Shown here: in pieces, positions 31,072 through 63,459 of the stretch | How the letters are laid out: each line of letters opens with the position of its first letter | How positions within the stretch are numbered: position 1 is the stretch's first letter | NCBI RefSeq assembly: GCF_963921235.1 | Contig: NC_086108.1 | Coordinates: forward strand, 35,652,001 to 35,716,000 | Source: Mobula hypostoma | Taxonomy: Eukaryota | Direction: 5' to 3' | DNA length: 64,000 nt | The notes under the pieces: model-generated | What the model saw: the letters and a program-made list of their open reading frames with translations, nothing else | What the model was told of the DNA's origin: nothing | Database searches by the model: none | Program-made: the position numbers and the translations under genes

Positions 31072-32240
31072 CACTGGACAACAAAGATGTCGCTCCCTGA
31101 ATACTTTTGACTGCACCTTATGGATTCTTGCCTGTTGATCATGAAAATCGCCATGAAATTTCCCTCACACACACCATTTTTTTTAATCGCCTATATTTGT
31201 TATTTCAATTCATAATTCATATCAATTAAAATGTTACCCACAATATAAGCTGAAAAGTTTTCTATCTTGTCTGTACATGCCTGGGCATGCTCAGACAGGG
31301 TGGATGCTGCATAGCAGGACAGGTTTTAGAAAGGCTATAAAAGTATCACACACACACCATTCTATAAATTTTGTTTACATATATTGGTTTGCAATCTAAT
31401 TGATAGAATCTGCTGTCACCAGGCACAAAAACTCGTTAAGCAGGTAGTTCCAGGGCAGAAAAGTGTGGCACTTGTAGACCAAACAGAAATATTTTTGCCT
31501 TCTCTTCATATAAAACAGGGGCTTATGAAAAATTTTGTGACAGGACAAGGAAGGTGAAGGGTTTCAATATTTGAGACAAATGTTTCCCAGAACAACTGAT
31601 GCCAAGATTAAAGAAGGCATTTTTGCTGGTTCACAAAAAAAACAAGCCATCAATGATAGGCAGTTCGAAAAACCCCTAGTGAGACCAGAGAAAATTGAAT
31701 AGAAGGCATTCAAGGATGTTGCTGAAAAATTTCTTGGCAATTACAGATCACCAATCTACGTACAGCTGGTTGACAACATGCTTCAAGCATACAAAACCAT
31801 GAAGTGCAACATGTTACTAAAAATTAATTTACTACATCCTCATTTAGATCTCTTCCCTGCAAATCTTGGCAATGTTAGTGATGAGCATGGTGAAAAGTTT
31901 CACCAGGACATTGCGGTCATGGAGAAATGGTATCAAGGCAACTAGAATTCATCAATGCTGGCTGATTATTGTTGGACGTTTAAGGGAGAAACCTCTAACA
32001 CCAAGTACAAATGAAAATTATCAATAACACATTTTTAGCTCAGTTGAACTGTTGCAAAGCATCAGCACCATCATGCAATTAAACACATTATATTCAATAA
32101 AAGTTAATTTCTCATTTCTCCAGACTTCTACGTGATACAAGTAGTCTGAAATTATATTTATGCTCATCTTCAAGTTTTCTATCATAACCACAAAAAACAC
32201 TGATAAAGCAATACTTTCAAAAGAAATTAGCTGTCCGGTG
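31072..32240 (+). mobile_element. Chapaev3 (CMC) DNA transposon, internally deleted
   Basis: Termini CACTGGACA...TGTCCGGTG, flanks GTA/TTA, motif SDEHGEKFHQDIAVME; homologous to 54522-56272. Confidence 0.85.
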
Positions 32241-36130: not shown

Positions 36131-37110
36131 CAACACACACAAAAGGCTGGTGGAACGCAGCAGGCCAGGCAGCATCTATAGGAAGAAGTACAGTCGACAT
36201 TTTGGGTCGAGACCCTTCGTCAGTACTAACGGAAAAAAGAGATAATAAGAGATTTGAAAGTGGGAGGGGGAGGGGGAGATCTGAAATGATAGGAGAAGAC
36301 AGGAGGGGGAGGGATGAAACCAAGAGCTGGGAAGTTGATTGGCAAACGGGATACAAGGCTGGAGAAGGGGGAGTATCATGGGACGGAAGGCCTTGGAAGA
36401 AAGAAAGGGGGAGGGGAGCACCAGAGGAAGATGGAGAACAGGCAAGGAGTTATTGTGAGAGGGAAAGAGAGCAAAAAATATATATGTCTAAATAAATAAA
36501 TAAGGATGGGGTAAGAAGGGGAGGAGGGGCATTAGCAGAAGTTAGAGAAATCAATGCTCATGCATTGAATATAAGGTGTTGTTCCTCCAACCTGAGTGTG
36601 TCTTCATCTCGACAGTAGAGGAGGCCATGGATTGACATATCAGAATGGGAATGGGGGGATGTGGAATTAAAATGTGTGACCCATCTTACCCCATCTTTCT
36701 TTCTTTCTTTCTTTCTTTATTTATTTAGATTTTTTTTCTCTCTTTCCCTCTCACAGTTACTCCTTGCCCGTTCTCCATCTTCCTCTGGTGCTCCCCTTCC
36801 CCTTTCTTTCTTCCAAGGCCTTCCATCCCATGATCTTCCCCCTTCTCCAGCCTTGTATCCCGTTTGCCAATCAACTTCCCAGTTCTTGGCTTCATCCCTC
36901 CCCCTCCTGTCGCCTCCTATCATTTTGGGTCTCCCCTCCCCCTCCCACTTTCAAATCTCTTACTAGCTCTTTTTTCCTTTAGTCCTGACAAAGGGTCTCG
37001 ACCTGAAACGTCCTGTACTTCTTCCTATAGACCCTGCCTAGCCTGCTGCATTCCACCAGCATTTTGTGTGGGTTGCTTGAATTTCAAGCATCTGCAGATT
37101 TTCTTGTGTG
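36131..37110. mobile_element. Penelope-like element remnant with inverted terminal repeats
   Basis: Arms 36131-36516 and 36684-37075 are reverse complements; the spacer encodes HSDMSIHGLLYC...RLEEQHLIF on the minus strand; hammerhead-like motif in each arm. Confidence 0.85.
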
Positions 37111-42440: not shown

Positions 42441-42626
42441 ATTAACATTGATTTTACAACACGGGAGAATATCACCAAAGACATCAATGAGCCCACACAG
42501 TCCAGCTTCGATACGGCGCAAAATATCATTCATAGCCTTATGGCAAAGGACCCTTACCCCAGGTTCCTGAAATCAGACAGCTACCTGGAGCTGATAAACA
42601 AGAAGAGAAGCAACCAACAGAAGTGA
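42441..42626 (+). CDS. RGS21-like R4 RGS terminal coding exon
   Basis: Polypyrimidine/AG acceptor, phase 0: INIDFTTRENI...FDTAQNIIHSLMAKDPYPRFLKSDSYLEL...K*. LMAKD and INIDF resemble RGS21; orthology not proven. Confidence 0.95.
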   Translation: MNIDFTTRENITKDINEPTQSSFDTAQNIIHSLMAKDPYPRFLKSDSYLELINKKRSNQQK

Positions 42627-51759: not shown

Positions 51760-53732
51760 TCCACCCCCCCCCACCGCCTTTTGATCCACAGAAAATGCTA
51801 GAGATCACATTATTGTTTATGTGTCTGAGTTTAATACAGTCCAAACGGAACGCCAGCATTCACGACAACACCAAATAATACTGATAAAGATACAAGCAAA
51901 ATATCATAGATGTAAAGCGTAGATATCAAAGCCAGCATATTTAAAAATATCAGTACCAATGCACATAAAAGAACATAATAAAACATACCTAATTTCATAC
52001 CATATATTGCCATATATAACAACAAATAAAATATAATGATGTACAAGTACATAATACTATGTAAGACAACATCATGGTGCAAAGTCAGACAAAATCACCA
52101 AAAAGAAACATGGCTCATAAACACTTAAGCTGTTTTAGTTGCCATTGAAAACCACGAAGCAAATTACATTGGATATCATTAAAACAAAGTGCAGAACTAT
52201 AATAACATGTTAAATAATATGAATTCAAGAATATACATTAGCGTTTAGACACCAGTTCCAAACCTTACTCCAAAAGGGTGGATTCTGCAAAACATCACTA
52301 GCTAAATCTGCATGATCTTGAATAGTCTCGGATAATTCATCCCATTGCATAATAATGACTTCATTATGGTTAACTGTGCAGTAAAATAAGGGATAGGTGG
52401 AAGAGCAGGAAATACATACCTAACTAAGCCCTCAGTAATATTATTGATACATACATTCAAGTGAATAGGTGGTTTTACAACAGCTTTGGGTGATAATTGA
52501 CCAACCAAAACTAAGTCCCTCAAAACACTGGAAACCACCACCATAAAGCTAACAAACTGCAAACTAAAGATCCCTTCTTGTAAAGTGTGTTTGAAGTACC
52601 AATCATTCACCAAAGCAAATTTTAGCAATGTCCTGTTATTGAGAGGCAAAATAGAAAGAGAATATTTACTATAAGAAATAAACCCACAATTTGTTAATCC
52701 ATTCTTAGCTAACCCCAATATTCTCCCTTATGATGACAAATTTACAGCCGTAGAGATCCTTGTCATTTAATAGCATATGAGGTAGATTAGTACGTGAAGT
52801 CCAAACTCCTTCTTGATATTTCCTGACATTATAGCGGGTATGCTCAGTTGTCACTGTGCTGATGAATATGAAGAACAGCTCCAACATACAGTGGTCCATG
52901 TTAACTCCATTTACAGAAAGTAACAAGAGGTAGAGGTTGTACATACAGTATTCTTATTATGTTGAGTAGATTCATTGTTAATTCTGTCAATAATTTGGCT
53001 TGTCATATCTCCCAAGGATTGTAAAATATGGAAGATTCCCGAAACTACATTTGCTTGTAGCTTACCTAAAGTGCTCACTCCTCCCATAGCCTCACAATCT
53101 CGATTTTAAATTTCTTTCACCTTTTTTGCCTTAGAGAATTTTAACTGAGAGTTTACCTCTGCAATATCTAGTGTATTTACTGTGGAAAATCTAACAGCCA
53201 ATTCAATAAGCCCCCTTCTTCACCTCTCTTGTGTTTTAAATTCTGAATAGGTAAACTGCTCAATTAGTAAATGTTGGGAAAACTCCTAGAGGCTTAATCT
53301 ACACCAGCTGGGAATGTGGAGGGAAGTCAAGTTGAACAACACTTACACATCTCTCTATCCCAGTACCTGAATAATTCAATCTTCTGTTTCTTCTGACGCA
53401 ACTCCCTTTCTATATGTCTGAAGCTCATCACACAATATAGGGCTAGTAACAGATGGCACTGCAATGGTTGTATCCTAATCCATTAGAGAGTCTAAGTCAT
53501 ATTAGACTCTAATATCTTTAGTTGAACTATTGACATGCAGGTTTAAGAAACCATCCTAGATTTACCTAACAAATTCTACCCCATATAAGTCCCTGGCAAT
53601 AAAGAAGTCTCAGGTCAGTACTGGAAATTAAAGTCACCCACTGTGTGATGTTGTCGACTCAATCATGGGGTAAGTTATACATGGAAGGTCTCAAGGCTCC
53701 AGAGCAACTGGGGTTGAGGTGCCTGGGGCACA

Positions 53733-54325
53733 TATAACCATATAACCATATAACAATTACAGCACGGAAACAGGCCATCTCAGCCCTTCTAGTCTGTGCC
53801 GAACTCTTACCCTACCTATTCCCACCGACCTGCACTCAGCCCATAACCCTCCATTCCTTTCCTGTCCAGATATCTATCCAATTTAACTTTACGCGACAAC
53901 ATAGAACCTGCCTCAACCACTTCTGCTGGAAGCTCATTTCACACAGCTACCACTCTCTGAGTAAAGAAGTTCCCCCTCACGTTACCCCTAAACTTTTGTC
54001 CTCTAATTCTTAACCCATGCCTTCTTGTTTGAATCTTCCCCACTCTCAATGGAAAAGGTCTATCCACGTCAACTCTATCAATCCCCCTCATAATTTTAAA
54101 CACCTCTATCAAGTCTCCCCTCAACCTTCTACGCTCCAAAGAATAAAGACCTAACTTGTTCAACCTTTCTCTGTAACTTAGGAGATGAAACCCAGGCAAC
54201 ATTTTAGTATCTTCTGTACTCTCTCAATTTTATTGACATCCTTCCTATAATTTGGTGACCAGAACAATATTCCAGATTTGGCCTTACCAATGCCTTATAC
54301 AAATTCAACATTACATCCCAATTAC
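53733..54325 (-). mobile_element. CR1 3' fragment inserted in env
   Basis: LSYRERLNKLGLYSLERRRLRGDLIEV and (ATATGGTT)n tail. Confidence 0.93.
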
Positions 54326-54521
54326 ATCCCACATGCTAACCGATGATCTCATTTCTGATTTGTGTCCATGTCAACAGTACTATTACATTCACAATGAAGA
54401 TGTACTTAAGTTAAAAGCCCTCTTTTTCCCGAAATAGGACAGAAAAAAATACATGGCTTCCCACTGTTAGCCTAGCACTCCCATCTTTCCCCCCATAATC
54501 ACCATTACTTGCCCCTGATTA

Positions 54522-55974
54522 CACTGGACAGCAATTTTTTTTCAAAGGTGTCACTTCCTCAGAAATATATTGTAATTATGATAGACCATTTGAATCTAAA
54601 CACAAAAGTAATTTCAGACTACTCGCAACACATCAGAATCTGGAGAAACAATAAACTAGCTTTTATTGAATACAATGTGTTTAATTGCTTAATGGTGCAA
54701 ACACTTTGCAATAGTTCACTAAGTAAAAAATGTTTTGTTGAGGATTTTTGTTTGTACTCAGTGTCTGAGGCTTCTCACTTAAGTGTCTAACAATAATCAG
54801 CCAGCATCAATGGATTCTAATTGCCCTAAACCCATTTCTCCATGACCACAAACTCCTGGTGAAACCTTTCACCATGCTTGTCACTGGCAGTGCCACAATT
54901 TGCAGGGAAGAAGTCTAAATGGGAATGCAGAAAAAGAACCTTTAGTGACATGTTGCACTTCATGGTCTTGTATTCTGGAAGTATGTTGTCAACCAGCTGC
55001 ACGTAGCTTGGTGCTTTGTAGTTACCAAAAAAATTTCAACACTATTCTTGTATGCCTTCCATGTGATTTTCTCCAGTCCCACTAAAAGTTCTTCAAATTG
55101 CCTGTCAATTTGATGGCCTGTTTGATTTGTGGATCAACACAAATGCCTTCCTTAATTTTGGCATCAGTTATTCTGGGAAACACCTGCTAGAGTATTGAAA
55201 TCCTTCAAGGATAGTTTTGTGCCTCGTGACAGCAGATTCCATCCTCGCAGTCTTGAACCCAGTAATTCTGCTTTTGCCTTTGACAAACCCAAGTCTCTGA
55301 ACAAGTCATTTAACTCAGATTGAGTTATCAGATGAGGCTCACTCAACATAAAAGGTTCAAAATCTGTATCAGAATTTGTGTCATTTTCCATTTCTGGCTC
55401 GTACGTTGTGGCATCTTCGTCTGCCTTCTCTGGACTCCATGTCTCTGGTAGCTTTGGCACTGGGGGACCACCGTCATACGGCACAGGTCTTATGGCTGAA
55501 GGAGATTGGGCATTCAATGGATTTCTTGTTTTTAGCAGAGAAACCAGACACATTTGTCAGACAGAAGTAGCATTCTGTCACATGATCCTTCTGCTCTTGC
55601 CATATCATTGGACGGTGAACGGCATTGACTTCCAAGTACCTCCCAGCCAAGCTCTAAGATCGACAGCGCATGTTGTGCAACAAATGTGAGGAGCCCAGGC
55701 TTTGTCTTTGTCACTATTTTTCCACCTAAAATAGAGTTCATAGGCTTTCTTAATAAGAGGAATCATGCTCCGTCTTTGAGATTTAAACGTATAATCACTA
55801 CAGATATAATAGGAAGTATCACAGCTGTTGCAACATTGGCGAGACATTTTGCTATCACAGATACTCCTGAAAATACAACTACTTTATTATAATTACACAC
55901 AATATGATATGTGCAGAGAGCATGTGCATCAATGTGATCGCAAACCGACATACATGCAAACAAAGTTCACAGAA

Positions 55975-56007
<33 letters not shown>

Positions 56008-56272
56008 ATGCTTTTATAGCCTTTCTAAAACCATGCAGCATTCGTCTTGTCTGAGCATGCCCAGGCATGCACAGAGAAGGTATAAAACTTTTCAACTTAC
56101 ATTATGGGCAACATTTTAATTGACTTGAATTATGATTTGAAATAATAAATATTGGCAATTTAAAAGATGGTGTGTGATAGGGAAATTTCATGGTGATTCT
56201 CATGACCAGCAGCCCAAAATCCATAAGACACACCCAAAGGTATTCAGGAAGCAAATTCTTTGTCATTGAGTG
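54522..56272 (-). mobile_element. Chapaev3 DNA transposon with internal deletion, inserted in env
   Basis: CAC...GTG termini with TTA on both sides; N-terminal Cys-rich domain (KKAYELYF, WAPHICC), ELNDLFRDLGLSKAKAELLGSRL, C-terminal SD.HGERFHQ. Confidence 0.9.
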
Positions 56273-56784
56273 TTACCAACAGACATTGGTCTTACTTGTA
56301 TTACAAAATCTTGTCTCAATTCTTCATAATTTCATACTACCATTTCATCTTCCTCATTCACAGAGTCTACTATGACCATGGCATCTGATGGAATCCATCT
56401 GCCTCCAACCCAATCTTCATACCTTGCATCTGTCCAGATGAATATATAATTATCCAATACTTTATTGTAGAACATATAACCTTCAGCAAAGCCTTCAACT
56501 GTTATGAGGCCACTCATCAGTAGTATATCAACACAAATCATTTCAGAATACCTGGAGAAAAACATTGGGCAGTTTCTGCACTTATCTAACTATTTGATAT
56601 TTGCTCTAAATTTAACTCTTCCATCTCTTGCTCAACTCACTGACTGGGGCAACTGCTCCTTCATCCTCATCACCATCAATTGCCTGAAAAATATATCTAA
56701 GATCATTATCATCTCCATACAGAACATCCCATTGACAGTGTGCTTTATGGACCTCAGCTGCAAGAAGACATTGACTTTCTCCAA

Positions 56785-59700
56785 GGGGCTAAGTTGGTTA
56801 ATGCTATCCAACCTTATTTATTAGGAGAAGTCTAGGTTTGATAGACAGACGGACTGTTTCTGTCAAGGACATCATCTGGTGCTACAAACCTTGGAGATGT
56901 CAAGGAAACTAGCTGATGTACTGAGATCATAACCTTCTGTCCTAATTCCAACTCCTTATGTTTCATTTGCATGTCTAAGTAAGCATTACTCTGCTGTTTC
57001 TTTTGTCCCATATTATGGGCTGCAACATAATGGGTTTCCTTGATATTGTCAATTAATTGCAGTACTCATTTTTCCTTTACAATACCATCATACTCAGGCT
57101 CTGATAAATCTAGCCCAACCAGGAATCCTAACACTCTTATTTCTCTCCCAGTCATCAATTTAAAGGTGTTAACCCAGTGGAAGAAGCTCTGCTGGTATAG
57201 ATTATCATAAGGACATGGGGTAAGACAGAGACCCATGTGCTCTTGTGCTGTTTAACCATCTTAGGCAATATTGTCTTTAAAGTCCTGTTCATCCATTCAA
57301 CCATTCCACTGGACTGAGCCCAATAAGGGATGTAGAACTTCTATTTTTGCCCAAACAGCTTCATCAGATTTTGCAGTGAAATCTTCATCTGGTTCCAGAC
57401 TCCTTGGCACTCCCCAATAGGTAAAAACTCTCTCAAACAAAATCTGAGCTATTAACTTGGTGGTGTTATTTTGAGTTGGGAAAGCCTCTATCCACTTGGC
57501 ATAAGTATTCACTATCATTAGGATATATTTCAGTTCTCCAGGTCTCACAAAATCAATCTGCAGGTTAACCCATGCCTTCCACAGGGTGTGTGTGTCTGAA
57601 TACAGCCAAATGAAACAACATTCCTCTGGGACAAAGGTGGAAAACACAGTACCAATAGTCATACACAGCATGAAGCATATACAGCACAAGTAAGGCATTG
57701 AAGCTGGGGTGCTCCGCTAGTAGCAGTGTGGTGTGGTGTCCAGGCTGGAATCGGTGCTGCCCCCCAGTGTTCACTTGGAAGAAGACAAGCTGAACCTCAA
57801 GCCAAATGTCACTTGTTTACAGCCACCAGGAGAGAAGCGTCAGAGACAGCACACTCCATCTGGGAGCGATGTGGTGTGGTGTCCAGTCTGGAATGAGTGC
57901 TGCCCCCAGTGTTTCCTTAGAAGAAGACATGCTGTATTATGGTTGACTGCAGATTTCTGCTACATTCATAGACTCAGGATCTGGAGTATTTTTTGTTTTA
58001 CATGGTGGTATTTTACTGATGTCTTACACATACTGGCTATCTTGTACATGCTATGTCTGCTTGGTGCTGTGTGTGACTGTTGGTTCTGTGTTTTGCACTG
58101 TGTCCCGGAGTAATACTGTTTCATTTGGCGATATTCATGTTTGATCGAATGATAATTGAACTTGAATTGAATTGATTGAATTGAATAATATAGCAGTAAA
58201 ATGCAGTCACACGAAAAAATATAGCCCAAGTTCCAAAATGACATGTCCCATAGCTTGATGGTGCATGGATGTTGTCAGCAAGAACAAGCCCTCAACAGTC
58301 CAGACGAATGCACACAATCCAGCTTGTCTTCCACTGAGTGAACACTGGGGGGTGGCACCTACAGGAGGGCCAGCCCCCAGTCCAGCATGGATGCCATGCC
58401 ACAACAAAGACCACACAACTCCCCACCGTTAAAGGCCAACGGGGTCTTGTGATCACAAGAAAAATGTCTCAGGCAATCATTCACTGTTTGACAGCATACC
58501 ACTTCTGTCCACTGGCTCCGAAACCCTTCTGTAGTGGGAAGCAACATGGTTCGCATCAAGTTCAGCTCCTCCGTCAATGAGCAACCTGCTGATGGGGTAG
58601 GCCAGTAGTACTTGAAGTTCTTAATGTCCAGTAGCATCTTGCAAACATAAAAAAGACAAAAGCACATTTGTTCGGCCCTGGAGAGGCCGCTGTGTCTGAG
58701 CACTCCACCAACTGACTGGAAGTCTCCCTCTGTATCTGGATTCCATTTCTCCCCACACTTTGCTGCTAATTTGGCTAACTCATCTGCCTTCACATTCCCT
58801 TCCAGAGATGTTTTTAAGCGAGCCCTTATCTTTTTTGCTTAATAAGTGTTCCCTCTTGCCTTCTCAAATATACCGTATACTTCAAGTGTGCTGATGGTAA
58901 AGGTATACAATCTGCTGAAATGTAACCTCTACCTTCCCATAACAGTAAAAATTCAGTCAAACTATTACAAAGGTACAGACTGCCTGGGTGTAAGATTGCT
59001 GCTGAAGGATATCTCCCTGCATGGCTGCCAACAACAGCTTATAGCAGCAAGCTCTGCCACTTGCACACTCATTGTTCTGGGAACGCGATCGCAACTCTTT
59101 CAATCTCTACTCCTTCCTTGTCCTCTACATGTATATCAAATCCTGTAAGCCTCTCTCCATCATGAGCTGATGACAATCCATCAACAAAGATCCCTAAAGA
59201 GGAAATTTCTGGTCTCGTGACTTCAGTTTCCTCTCCTGATTTTATGATGGGAACAACTGGTCCTTTCCATACTTGTTCTGCTGTCACCTGGCATTCATGA
59301 GTTTCACTCCGATAAGTTAAATTGTCGGTGGTCATGGCTGTCTTGTTAATTCTTTTAACTGTGACATTATGACTCTGTAATAGCAATGTCTATCAGGCTA
59401 GTTGAGTTTGACAGATTGTTACATCCTTGATTTGGCCATCCAGCAAAAGCTGGATGAGAATATGCTCTGTTAAGTTGGTTGGTGGATTAAGACCCACAAT
59501 ATAAGTGAACTGTTTAACTGCACAAAACACTGCTAATAGATGACAGTCACATGGTGTATATCCTTGTTTGATTGGGGTAAGCATTCGAGATGCATATGCC
59601 CCTGGCTCCAGTTTGCCATGTGCCTCCTGGAGTCACACAACTGATGTTGCATTATTGGTGGCAGGAACCTCCAAGGAGAATGGCTCGGAAAGGTTTGGGG

Positions 59701-61100
59701 TCTTAAGAGCAGGTGCTCCTGCAAGGCTGGTTTTAAGATCTGAAACTGCCTTTGTGTGTTCCAGTTTCCATTCCCATGGAACACCTATCTTCAAGAGCCC
59801 CATAAGTGGGTAAGATTGGCGGCAAAGTCATCTATGTGGACTCTACAAAGCCCTACCAAACCAAGAAACAACCCCAATCCCCTCACATCAGCGGGAAAAG
59901 GCAGTTCTGCCATAACACGTACACACAGTTTATCAATCTCTCGCCTTCCAGGGGATACGACCACCCCCAAGTAACTAACCTACTGTGTTACGATTTAAGC
60001 TTTTTTGGGGGTTTACCTTTAGACCCGTCTGCTGTAAAAGTTGCTGTAGCTCTTTAGGTAACTCAAAATGCTCCTCTTGAGTCTTTGTCTGTTACAGTAA
60101 TCTACATATTGAATTAAAAACTAGGGAGCTGAAAAGGATTTCAGCCCATTTGCCAACCATTGACAGAAAAAGACAGGCAAATCATGAAAACCTTTCATAC
60201 TGTCTATTTATACTGTTGTCCCTTTCAAGTGAATTGAAATTTACATTGATACTCTCTTTTCAAAGGAACAGACCAAAATCTATTACTTATATCCAGTACT
60301 GTGAACCACTTTGCTACAGTATTCTGCTTAATCAGTCTTGGGACTCGATGCTACAGTGGAGGGAGTTAAAGGAGTTCCCTGCAATCTATTGTGAGTCTCC
60401 AGTTTCCATCAAATGTTTGAACTGGTTATAAAGGAGAATTATTTGTAGATGTCATTTCTAACAAAACTCCCCATGTTAACAAACTCTGAAAAACATTCTC
60501 TAAATCTGCCTCTGCTTGTTTTGGAATTCCATTTTGCTTCTGTGGTTTCAGGTGCGGGCCTCATATACACACCTCTCCTTTCATCCTGCCACAGTCGTGT
60601 TCATGTTTAGCAAATACTGCCTGGCAGTCTAAAATAATTTATCCCCCATCATATCTTCTGCCTTCACCCACATCTCCCCAGCTGTACATGCCCTTCCCCA
60701 TATTGTCTGACTGGAATGTTTATAGGGAGCAGCTCCTTATCAACATTAAAGTACCAAATCATACAATTATTTGGATTAAATCCAAACCCAATTTCCTAAT
60801 AGAATCATTTCCCAGAATATGATTTTGAGCAATTGGCAGGTTGATGAGCTCAACCAAGTGGGGCACACTCAGTTGTCCCATCCATATATGTACAGATATG
60901 TAATCAACTCCCCTACCTGTGAATACCCAGTTAATCCAATTAAAAGAATAGTATTCTGTGTTTCCCAACCAGGTGCATTGAATGTGGATGTATTCAGGGT
61001 GTTTTGAGAGCTTCCTTTATCCCAAAAAAATTTTATAGGGCCGCCTTCTGTTCTAGCTTCTACAAGAGGTCTACCTGCACCATCCCACCTTGCGGTGTAT
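56785..61100 (-). pseudogene. pol: Retroviral pro-pol remnant (protease, RT, tether, RNase H, integrase)
   Basis: Protease region GRPLV...FWDKGSS; RT GNWRLTID, LDISN.FWSVPL, QYVD; tether AYASRML...HLLAVF.AVKQF; RNase H IFVDG.S, QVAELAA, GNVKADELAK; integrase LQIDF, KWIEAFPT, SSGMVE.MNRTLK. Confidence 0.9.
57580..58740. mobile_element. Cluster of Rex-like tails and unknown repeats interrupting the integrase N-terminus
   Basis: Oppositely oriented tails near 57590-57690 and 58040-58190; ~60-bp direct repeat at 57727 and 57870. Confidence 0.55.
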
Positions 61101-61199
61101 AGCCACATAATGGAGGCCTGACACCACCTTTGCACACTGGGAGTCCATCCCCATAGGTAACTATGGATACAGTAGAGGTTTCGTCTCTGCTCCCTGGAC

Positions 61200-63459
61200 A
61201 TTACATTGTGGGGAACATGGTGGACCTTCCAGGGGCAATGGAGCCTTAGTTACAACCTGACCTTTCCCAACCCATCTGGGTTGTGAGCAGTCTCTAGCAA
61301 AGAGACCTTAATGTCCATAGTTGAAACATTTCCATGGGAGTCTACTATTCATAACAGGAGGAATGTCGATTTTCCAGCCACATCCTCAACCGCCCTTGGC
61401 AATAGGTGGTGCTACCAAGCACGAAGGTGGCATAGCATACCCTGATAGGCTTCCCATCCATACTCTGACAGATTTCCCATCCATGCCCTGATAGGCTTCC
61501 CATCCATACTCTGACAGATTTCCCATCCATGCCCTGACAGGCTTCCCATCCATACTCTGACAGATTTCCCATCCATGCCCTGACAGGCTTCCCATCCATA
61601 CTCTGACAGATTTCCCATCCATACCCTGATAGGCTTCCCATCCATACTCTGACAGATTTCCCATCCATACCCTGATAGGCTTCCCATCCATACTCTGACA
61701 GATTTCCCATCCATACCCTGATAGGCTTCCCATCCATACTCTGACAGATTTCCCATCCATACCCTGATAGGCTTCCCATCCATACTCTGACAGATTTCCC
61801 ATCCATACCCTGATAGGCTTCCCATCCATACTCTGACAGATTTCCCATCCATACCCTGACAGGCTTCCCATCCATGCCTTGATAGGCTTCCCATCCATAC
61901 TCTGACAGATTTCCCATCCATACCCTGATAGGCTTCCCATCCATACTCTGACAGATTTCCCATCCATACCCTGATAGGCTTCCCATCCATACTCTGACAG
62001 ATTTCCCATCCATACCCTGATAGGCTTCCCATCCATACTCTGACAGATTTCCCATCCATACCCTGATAGGCTTCCCATCCATACTCTGACAGATTTCCCA
62101 TCCATACCCTGATAGGCTTCCCATCCATACTCTGACAGATTTCCCATCCATACCCTGATAGGCTTCCCATCCATACTCTGACAGATTTCCCATCCATACC
62201 CTGATAGGCTTCCCATCCATACTCTGACAGATTTCCCATCCATACCCTGATAGGCTTCCCATCCATGCTCTGACAGATTTCCCATCCATGCCCTGACAGG
62301 CTTCCCATCTCCCTTCATTCTGCCACTGTGCACCTTGTTCTCTCATAGGGGCCAATTTAGAACCCTGTTTCCCCTTATCCTCCTTAGTAACTTTTCCCTT
62401 ACTTCCTTTTCCCAACTTGTATCATCCCTCTGAGGACTCATGCTACAGTGTGTGTGGGATCAGTGGGATCAAACACTTCACGCACCCTTCTGCTCTCCTA
62501 GGTATTGTGCAACACCGCAGTCCTCAGGCAGTTATCACCCAGCTGTTCAGTCAAGTTCCGCCTATCCAAAATAGAACTGTAAACACTGGTGAAAACCGAC
62601 TACAACCTTGTTGCAAGTGCACTGGGGTGTTACCCTTTCTGCCCTCTGCATCTGTGCAGAGCCTCTACTGGGTCACCTCGATCAGTCCCTGCAGCTTCTA
62701 ATATAAATCACTCCGGCCTTGTACCTGTTCCTCTGGCAGGGCTGAGTGTAACAAAGAAGTTAGAGACAGAAGGGTGAACTTTGGCTCCTCTGCTTCGTCT
62801 AAACCATGAACTATCCTGTGCTGCTGGATGCACTGGAAAAGTTCTGGAGGATCCTCTCCCAGCCCTCGCGTTGGTACAGTATATTCGCAGCTATAGCACT
62901 CAACTGAGCCACGTCAAAAAGGGTTGAGTACTGAGTTACAACTGGTCCTCACACCCGAGCCCCCTCCTGGCTCTGGTATCTCCCGAACTCTCTCTATTAC
63001 CACCGGCATTGTTGGGGCAGTGGATGCTGAAGGTTCCATCCCCTCTTGGAGAAGTCCAGAGGGAGATGGGCCAATTTCCCAAAATCCTCACAATTATAGT
63101 GCGCCACCTCACACGCTAAATCACCCCAATCTATATCACCTTCATCATCTGTCCTCACCCCTAATGCATGTATCACTCCTCTCTGAGCTGAGAGTTGACT
63201 TGCAGTTTCTCAATCTGTTTTATACTCTTGGTGTGATCAAGGATGCCTTTCTTTCCTGCTGCCAATTTCTGCACAACGTTCATAGCAGTCTGTAAATTAT
63301 GACACTAACTTTTCCACTTCTCTAATTGCGTATTTGCCTATTTATGATCCTCTTCCCTTTTCTCCTTTTCCCTTATCATATATTCACACCGAGCCTGAAA
63401 CTGAGTCGTGTGTATCAAATTCAGCTGACACTGCTCCCTCAATCTTTTCACTTTCTTCC

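Follow-up and report, generated by a model that had tools for sequence, protein, structure and literature searches.

The window, by which we mean the whole 64-kb stretch of DNA analysed, carries a decayed gag-pro-pol-env provirus on its minus strand (Table 1), and the stretch singled out in the original prediction is the post-cleavage half of its env. Using tblastn with an uninterrupted 745-aa stingray protein (described below), we traced the env from ~56560 to 52118, with two transposon inserts splitting the reading, as collinear ungapped pieces at 55–88% identity (E=3e-65 and 6e-59). Because the alignment to an uninterrupted protein is collinear, the env features are not products of chance. 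The tblastn rows amounted to 18 ungapped pieces with 13 stops and ~11 frame changes, after one chance row inside the DNA-transposon-like insert had been dropped; ~8 frame changes lie between the basic site and the tail, and the features are spread across several minus frames. The observed/expected CpG ratio is 0.18 in the env stretch against 0.27 over the whole window, a depletion that fits general methylation decay. This env copy is dead, and protein can no longer be made from it.

Table 1 Features of the provirus, from gag to the probable 3' LTR start; residue numbers are those of the intact Hypanus sabinus protein P0002
Feature	Position	Strand	Basis or remark
Decayed probable gag with a start that is coiled-coil-like, a 19-copy array of a 46-bp unit (61436-62309) and a zinc-knuckle-like remnant at ~61330	61280..63450	-	No gag Pfam match
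Probable protease, decayed	60750..61120	-	Motif reading only; no Pfam match
Decayed reverse transcriptase (RT), SnRV-like by hand comparison	59800..60550	-	PF00078 E=7e-4; PDB matches
Tether / RNase H-like domain after RT	59495..59770	-	PF17919 E=1.8e-17
Probable second RNase H, decayed	58750..59200	-	Motif reading only; no Pfam match
Decayed integrase	56900..57650	-	PF00665 E=0.026 at 57560-57384, under curated cut-off; frame reading
Env piece 1: signal peptide and start of N-terminal module, residues 10-115	56273..56560	-	tblastn, 57-68% identity, ungapped pieces, two frame changes
DNA-transposon-like insert splitting env, 4-bp duplication at flanks	54523..56272		Second copy at ~31080-32240
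Env piece 2: remaining N-terminal module, residues ~116-176	54331..54522	-	tblastn
LINE 3'-end fragment splitting env	53745..54330	-	Related copies elsewhere in window
Env Thr/Pro-rich linker with ~177-nt extra stretch, then F2-like strand and helix, residues 172-290	53226..53744	-	Alignment; model elements E232-255, H267-282
Basic furin-type cleavage site R-x-R-R, in-frame stop TGA inside	53214..53225	-	
Fusion peptide, part of it deleted, with the HRA-like first heptad helix, residues 295-394	52926..53213	-	Alignment and model
Cysteine-rich beta core (domain III/I/II-like), residues 452-641, several frame changes	52374..52897	-	Alignment and model
Second helix (HRB-like, from 52371), Trp-rich membrane-proximal segment (from 52275), TM helix (52209-52147), short tail	52118..52374	-	
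Polypurine-tract-like run, then TG at ~51760: probable 3' LTR start	51764..51782	-	

Neither a partner 5' LTR nor a primer-binding-site match was found within the 64-kb window. The protease was called by its motif, and the zinc-knuckle-like remnant in gag is weak, with 2 of 4 ligands. The unit of the array in gag consists of two 23-bp halves (97% match), and the array is far more uniform than the surrounding provirus and so probably expanded recently. Between RNase H and integrase (~57700-58400) lies an insert that is non-coding and contains short repeats, both direct and inverted. Within env, the LINE fragment is presumably CR1-type. The transposase-like motif of the other insert, and the family it belongs to, are likewise our assumption, and the transposase-like reading had no Pfam match; its two copies in the window are ~80% identical and in opposite orientation, the one in env having the 4-bp target duplication. 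The extra stretch of ~177 nt in the linker (53472-53648) is missing from the stingray proteins and occurs once in the window. Farther off, a long nested inverted repeat at 36131-37075 (arms of 212, 80 and 63 nt at 90–92%) is probably two SINE copies head to head, and a short frame at 42441-42626, which by its motif resembles the C-terminal exon of an RGS protein, may mark a host gene near the provirus.

The features previously read from the letters alone were recovered on closer analysis. The furin-like R-TGA-R-R is a basic site with an in-frame TGA, the proposed fusion peptide and heptad region have an apolar start and a heptad-rich stretch, and the second helix, Trp-rich segment and TM helix follow in that order. 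The predicted spacing of ~1.05 kb agrees with the distance in the window copy from the basic site to the TM start (1005 nt) and end (~1070 nt), whereas its equivalent of ~350 codons was an underestimate: ~57 codons after the first helix (residues 395-451 of the intact protein) and part of the fusion peptide are missing from the window env, and the cleavage site-to-TM distance is ~400 residues in the intact homologue. As first reported, neither CX6CC nor a pattern like that of the immunosuppressive domain (ISD) occurs in any of the three minus frames of 52100-53740. The window env returned no match when searched directly against Pfam and PDB sequences, and its frames had none to the gamma-type TLV_coat family at E≤1; chymotrypsin matches were rejected as chance (E=0.12).

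Intact copies had been proposed as a check and were found in two stingrays. A search with an X-read window frame identified Hypanus sabinus XP_059838750.1 (P0002, 745 aa) as the sole protein among 3505 candidates. In the same cluster are Hemitrygon akajei XP_072911529.1 (P0003; also 745 aa, with 96% identity) and P0004, a shorter paralogue of 319 aa from Hypanus; P0002 and P0003 are annotated as uncharacterised. Judging from these nearest relatives, the provirus probably lies in a ray genome. P0002 has an N-terminal hydrophobic segment or signal peptide, RRRR at 291-294 as its single furin-type site, 451 aa after that site, one TM helix (~697-720) and a tail of ~25 aa. A HMMER search returned 36 proteins at E≤0.001. 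Of the 20 that we looked up, 16 came from sharks and rays (Heterodontus, Scyliorhinus, Mustelus, Chiloscyllium, Pristis, Rhinoraja, Pristiophorus and Heptranchias) and two from frogs (Pelodytes and Xenopus). Overall, the Env family was seen in ten shark and ray species and two frogs. P0011 (Chiloscyllium, 739 aa, labelled "Ig-like domain-containing" in one source) and P0015 (Pelodytes, 723 aa) are near full length and have differing N-terminal modules. P0014 (Pristis) and P0030 are gene models fusing a short env piece to an ankyrin/TRP channel and to an F-box protein, respectively; they may be chimeras of annotation or may contain exonised ERV sequence. When the word search was repeated with P0002, only P0002 itself came back among 8000 scored candidates. 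At the DNA level, 45% of sampled window words were present in sequencing runs of a second organism from a separate study, which suggests a copy there at ~97% identity; the small word shares in two further organisms (C and D) are no evidence, and no RNA run with these words was on record.

We modelled P0002 with AlphaFold2 from 36 sequences (pLDDT 56.7, pTM 0.38). Residues 21-217 were poorly modelled (pLDDT 20–35 in the N-terminal module), and blocks of the beta core (471-600) reached pLDDT 74–92. The predicted elements, namely strand 232-255, helix 267-282, cleavage site, helices 290-339 and 344-408, beta-rich core 436-602, helix 639-674 and TM, stand in the order of paramyxo- and pneumovirus F, and the F-type trait of a basic site, fusion peptide and long HRA is present. 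Foldseek against PDB returned 226 matches at E≤0.001, led by RSV F (E=1.4e-10) and including hPIV3 F (1.7e-9); all 37 among the matches listed were paramyxo- or pneumovirus F, as were all 50 rows of a second look with VIA. When VIA was applied to the Foldseek candidates, hPIV3 F reached Z 10.9 (rmsd 8.6, 315 residues aligned, model 226-606 on F 24-431), and in most second-look rows the model from 226 onward aligned to F from residues 22-36 onward. In the model, as in F-type proteins, one strand and the HRC helix of the core come from the N-terminal subunit. In a wide VIA search, NDV F ranked first (Z 8.8, rmsd 14.4, 357 aligned), foamy Env scored Z 7.4 (293 aligned) and HERV-K postfusion Env gave an 80-residue helix match only (Z 6.4). 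TM-scores were low (0.2–0.28 by query, rmsd 6–37). BFVD returned F-type proteins of many groups among 50 rows, baculovirus F included, together with the Envs of WEHV1 (E=3.2e-10), WDSV (8.6e-8) and feline foamy virus (6.6e-4, rank 45). The first two are predicted structures (rows Q9WHI8 and A4GTG3), and their match to the P0002 model suggests that epsilonretrovirus Env may also be F-type. At the sequence level, P0002 matched neither PF00523 nor any PDB sequence, the family profile matched PIV3 F at E=1.4e-4 until loki-like rows were removed, and Atlas feature leads for P0002 (spike, F, baculovirus F) all scored <0.9. Taken together, the fold of the intact Env is very probably F-type. The fold matches support the earlier reading as a paramyxovirus- or pneumovirus-like fusogen; they were obtained with the intact homologue rather than with the broken copy in the window.

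F matches could also arise through generic coiled coils if the Env were of the gamma type, or another member of subclass Ia, but divergent and unusually long in its loop. Unrelated short helical matches do tie with F in the wide VIA search (Z 8.7 and 8.0), and GP41 matches the last 90 residues of P0002 weakly (E=0.21). We consider this reading highly improbable, given that CX6CC is absent from all nine long homologues, that P0002 lacks CX6CC and CXXC alike, and that TLV_coat, the gamma-type family against which the prediction was to be checked, matched neither P0002 (E≤10) nor 35 relatives (E≤0.1). Among the Foldseek matches listed there were no gamma- or beta-type TM chains, and the alignments to F span 270–350 residues, beta core included. 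As a control for coiled-coil bias, we folded P0002 425-612 alone, free of the helices (pLDDT 49.9). All 43 Foldseek matches listed were again F, at E=0.03–0.29 and none at E≤0.001. VIA gave F only Z 3.6 with this model, and its last 60 residues matched Ig/FN3 sandwiches weakly (Z up to 4.5); F domain II is Ig-like (PMC11468914).

The F-type fold could also have come from outside the retroviruses, through endogenisation of a paramyxovirus F gene that merely lies beside pol. The top structural matches are indeed mononegavirus F, and paramyxovirus-like EVEs have been reported in sharks (bioRxiv 2023.10.17.562709). Yet the gene sits in env position, directly behind integrase and before the polypurine tract on the same strand, structure-aligned identity of the P0002 model to F is only 7–15%, and the nearest relatives are vertebrate genomic proteins rather than RNA-virus F. 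Such a capture is hardly credible.

To place the carrier of this retroviral env, we compared its RT. Among PDB matches, which included no SnRV or loki RT, foamy Pol was best (E=4e-15), with Ty3 at 6e-5 and MLV at 5e-3. A by-eye count of the window RT pieces over ~199 positions of the published alignment in PMC7947760, with fish FLERV rows outside the tally, gave ~88 identities to SnRV, 70 to WDSV, 66 to simian foamy virus, 63 to HERV-L and 56 to Loki-Str. Over the 20 residues past the LPQ position, again by eye, the window RT shares 11 with SnRV, 7 with WDSV, 6 with foamy virus and 4 with Loki-Str. A pol homologue search did not help placement (one of 5572 candidates, a gypsy-type polyprotein at 29%). 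By the hand count, the carrier is probably an SnRV-like retrovirus and not a loki- or foamy virus. SnRV Env itself was neither among the 20 named of the 36 Env matches nor among the 50 BFVD rows.

An F-like Env is a hallmark of lokiretroviruses, and the Env family is linked to theirs. P0035, a loki-like protein that resembles by eye the lokiretrovirus Env sequence given in the PMC7947760 supplement, matches PF00523 at 4.7e-6; the family matched the loki-like Env by blastp (25%, E=7e-13), and a 32-sequence family profile built without the P0035 group matched P0035 with an hhalign probability of 97.4 (E=1.2e-11). The provirus could accordingly be read as a lokiretrovirus whose range extends to cartilaginous fishes, with a gag start that is coiled-coil-like, as is the loki smc region (by eye), a tether and a probable second RNase H. 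The second RNase H is read by motif only, and the pairing of tether and second RNase H is common to all retroviruses. Against this, the RT count is lowest for Loki-Str, and the loki-wide VPLSRWPM and G(Y/L)xNSPx(E/D)FN blocks of the PMC7947760 alignment are missing by eye from the window RT. The screen in PMC7947760 covered Scyliorhinus torazame and Chiloscyllium punctatum and left both without a loki mark (taking its asterisk as positive), yet both encode this Env family. P0035 is also only 571 aa long and has no N-terminal module. An extension of the lokiretroviruses is in our view improbable.

A fish foamy-like virus with an F-like Env would account for foamy Pol as the best PDB match of the RT, for foamy Env turning up in the fold searches and for a TM ectodomain of similar length. 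This possibility is slimmer still than that of a lokiretrovirus. Foamy Env has an RBD of ~330 aa between HRC and the furin site (PMC11468914), whereas fewer than 10 residues separate helix and site in P0002 (the helix ends at 282 and the site begins at 291), whose extra module is N-terminal. Foamy Env also ranks below F in BFVD, the RT hand count prefers SnRV to simian foamy virus, and the gag retains the weak zinc-knuckle-like remnant. The best explanation, in which we have good confidence, is that the stretch is the fusion subunit of a dead ERV's env, that the ancestral Env was F-type and that its carrier was SnRV-like.

Ahead of the F core, P0002 has an extra N-terminal module of ~160 aa and a Thr/Pro linker. 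Atlas features for the module scored 0.79 or less. A blastp comparison with five relatives found no link between their N-termini and that of P0002; the best alignment (E=0.026) fell in the signal peptide. In subclass Ib proteins the receptor module stands either at the N-terminus, the arrangement of coronavirus spike, or between the two subunits, the arrangement of foamy viruses (PMC11468914). The N-terminal position and the differences among relatives make this module a likely attachment module, and it is likely the receptor binder because there is no separate attachment gene. The ancestral Env was probably a subclass Ib (F-type) class I fusogen comprising, in order, signal peptide, ~160-aa module, Thr/Pro linker, F2-like strand and helix and basic site, followed after the site by fusion peptide, long HRA, cysteine-rich beta domains, HRB, Trp-rich segment, TM and a ~25-aa tail. 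If the protein works as F and foamy Env do (PMC11468914), its precursor would form a trimer that a furin-like cut at the basic site would prime, the F2-like strand and helix staying woven into the core after cleavage. Upon a trigger, the fusion peptide would be released and extended along the coiled coil formed by HRA, and a six-helix bundle would arise when HRB folds back, as in RSV and parainfluenza F. We infer the trimer, its cleavage, fusion and the receptor role from these likenesses.

F-like Env has already been published for loki- and foamy viruses (PMC7947760, PMC11468914), a precedent on which the original prediction was silent, and for errantiviruses (bioRxiv 2023.10.26.564294). Our literature search found no published description of an F-type Env on SnRV-like or chondrichthyan ERVs, though other foamy-virus work may bear on the point. 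The Env family is not described in the available portions of bioRxiv 2023.10.17.562709, bioRxiv 2024.03.17.585361, PMC13709493, PMC2717909, PMC12440569, PMC12193657, PMC12583693 and PMC11521997. What appears to be new is an F-type Env on a probably SnRV-like carrier, with the ~160-aa module before the F core. We lean towards the view that sharks, rays and frogs host an undescribed F-type retroviral Env family on SnRV-like viruses, with lineage-specific N-terminal receptor modules. If this is true, an F-type Env would be standard in the deep branches of the retroviruses (loki, foamy, epsilon and SnRV-like).

An undescribed family could also include a co-opted member, the 745-aa copy shared by the stingrays serving as an F-type syncytin-like or restriction gene in cartilaginous fish. 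This is conceivable given that both proteins are 745 aa long and differ at only 29 of 745 residues, with the fewest differences in the fusion peptide/HRA (1/116, against 8/161 in the N-terminal module). The Hypanus paralogue P0004 diverges about equally (16/319 vs 13/319), so that a young multi-copy family or recent viral activity fits as well, and from these sequences we regard co-option as unlikely. The two stingray genera carrying the copy are live-bearing.

The provirus in the window is dead and unremarkable. Structure and selection could be tested on the intact stingray proteins. On whether retroviral Env was ancestrally F-type or gamma/beta-type, Wang and Han (2020, PMC7947760) set out four scenarios that they could not separate. 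An SnRV-like backbone bearing an F-type Env, together with the structural matches of WDSV and WEHV Env, would put more branches on the F-type side, and the question becomes testable by an Env tree. Screens of fish ERVs for gamma-type motifs would miss a whole Env family; one survey of anamniote Env was screened with gamma- and beta-type queries (bioRxiv 2021.11.23.469661).

Among known systems, the family shares with the F proteins of RSV, hPIV3 and Nipah virus its predicted fold and the succession of elements that starts with the F2 strand and runs to the TM; it differs in its low identity to them and in being a retroviral env, probably with its own attachment module. Foamy virus Env (subclass Ib, PMC11468914) likewise has an F-type core with nested domains, to which both subunits contribute, and a long fusion subunit, but P0002 lacks the inserted RBD, has one furin-type site only, measures ~745 aa against ~980 and carries its extra module at the N-terminus, as coronavirus spike does. 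Lokiretrovirus Env (PMC7947760) shares signal peptide, basic site, fusion peptide, coiled coil, TM and F homology, in addition to the sequence homology detectable by hhalign. The differences lie in the RT, which is not loki-like by hand count, in the negative screens of cartilaginous fishes in that study and in the ~160-aa N-terminal module and linker that the window family adds.

The SnRV clade is closest in RT motifs by hand count, and SnRV-like ERVs are known from elephant shark (CmiERV lineage I, PMC4422223). Its Env is not described as F-like in the available text of PMC4422223 and PMC12193657, the tail of SnRV Env, whose length is a trait of SnRV itself, is 136 aa (PMC12193657) vs ~25 aa in P0002, and the named matches hold no sequence link between the two Envs. 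Epsilonretrovirus Env (WDSV, WEHV1), which lacks gamma-type hallmarks (PMC9967133), resembles the P0002 model in the predicted structures found in BFVD, but it is much longer (1159–1317 aa), and the window RT is less similar to that of WDSV than to that of SnRV. Errantiviruses and baculoviruses offer a further parallel, an F-type Env on LTR elements (bioRxiv 2023.10.26.564294); errantiviruses are invertebrate Ty3/gypsy elements, whereas the window RT matches foamy Pol far better than Ty3.
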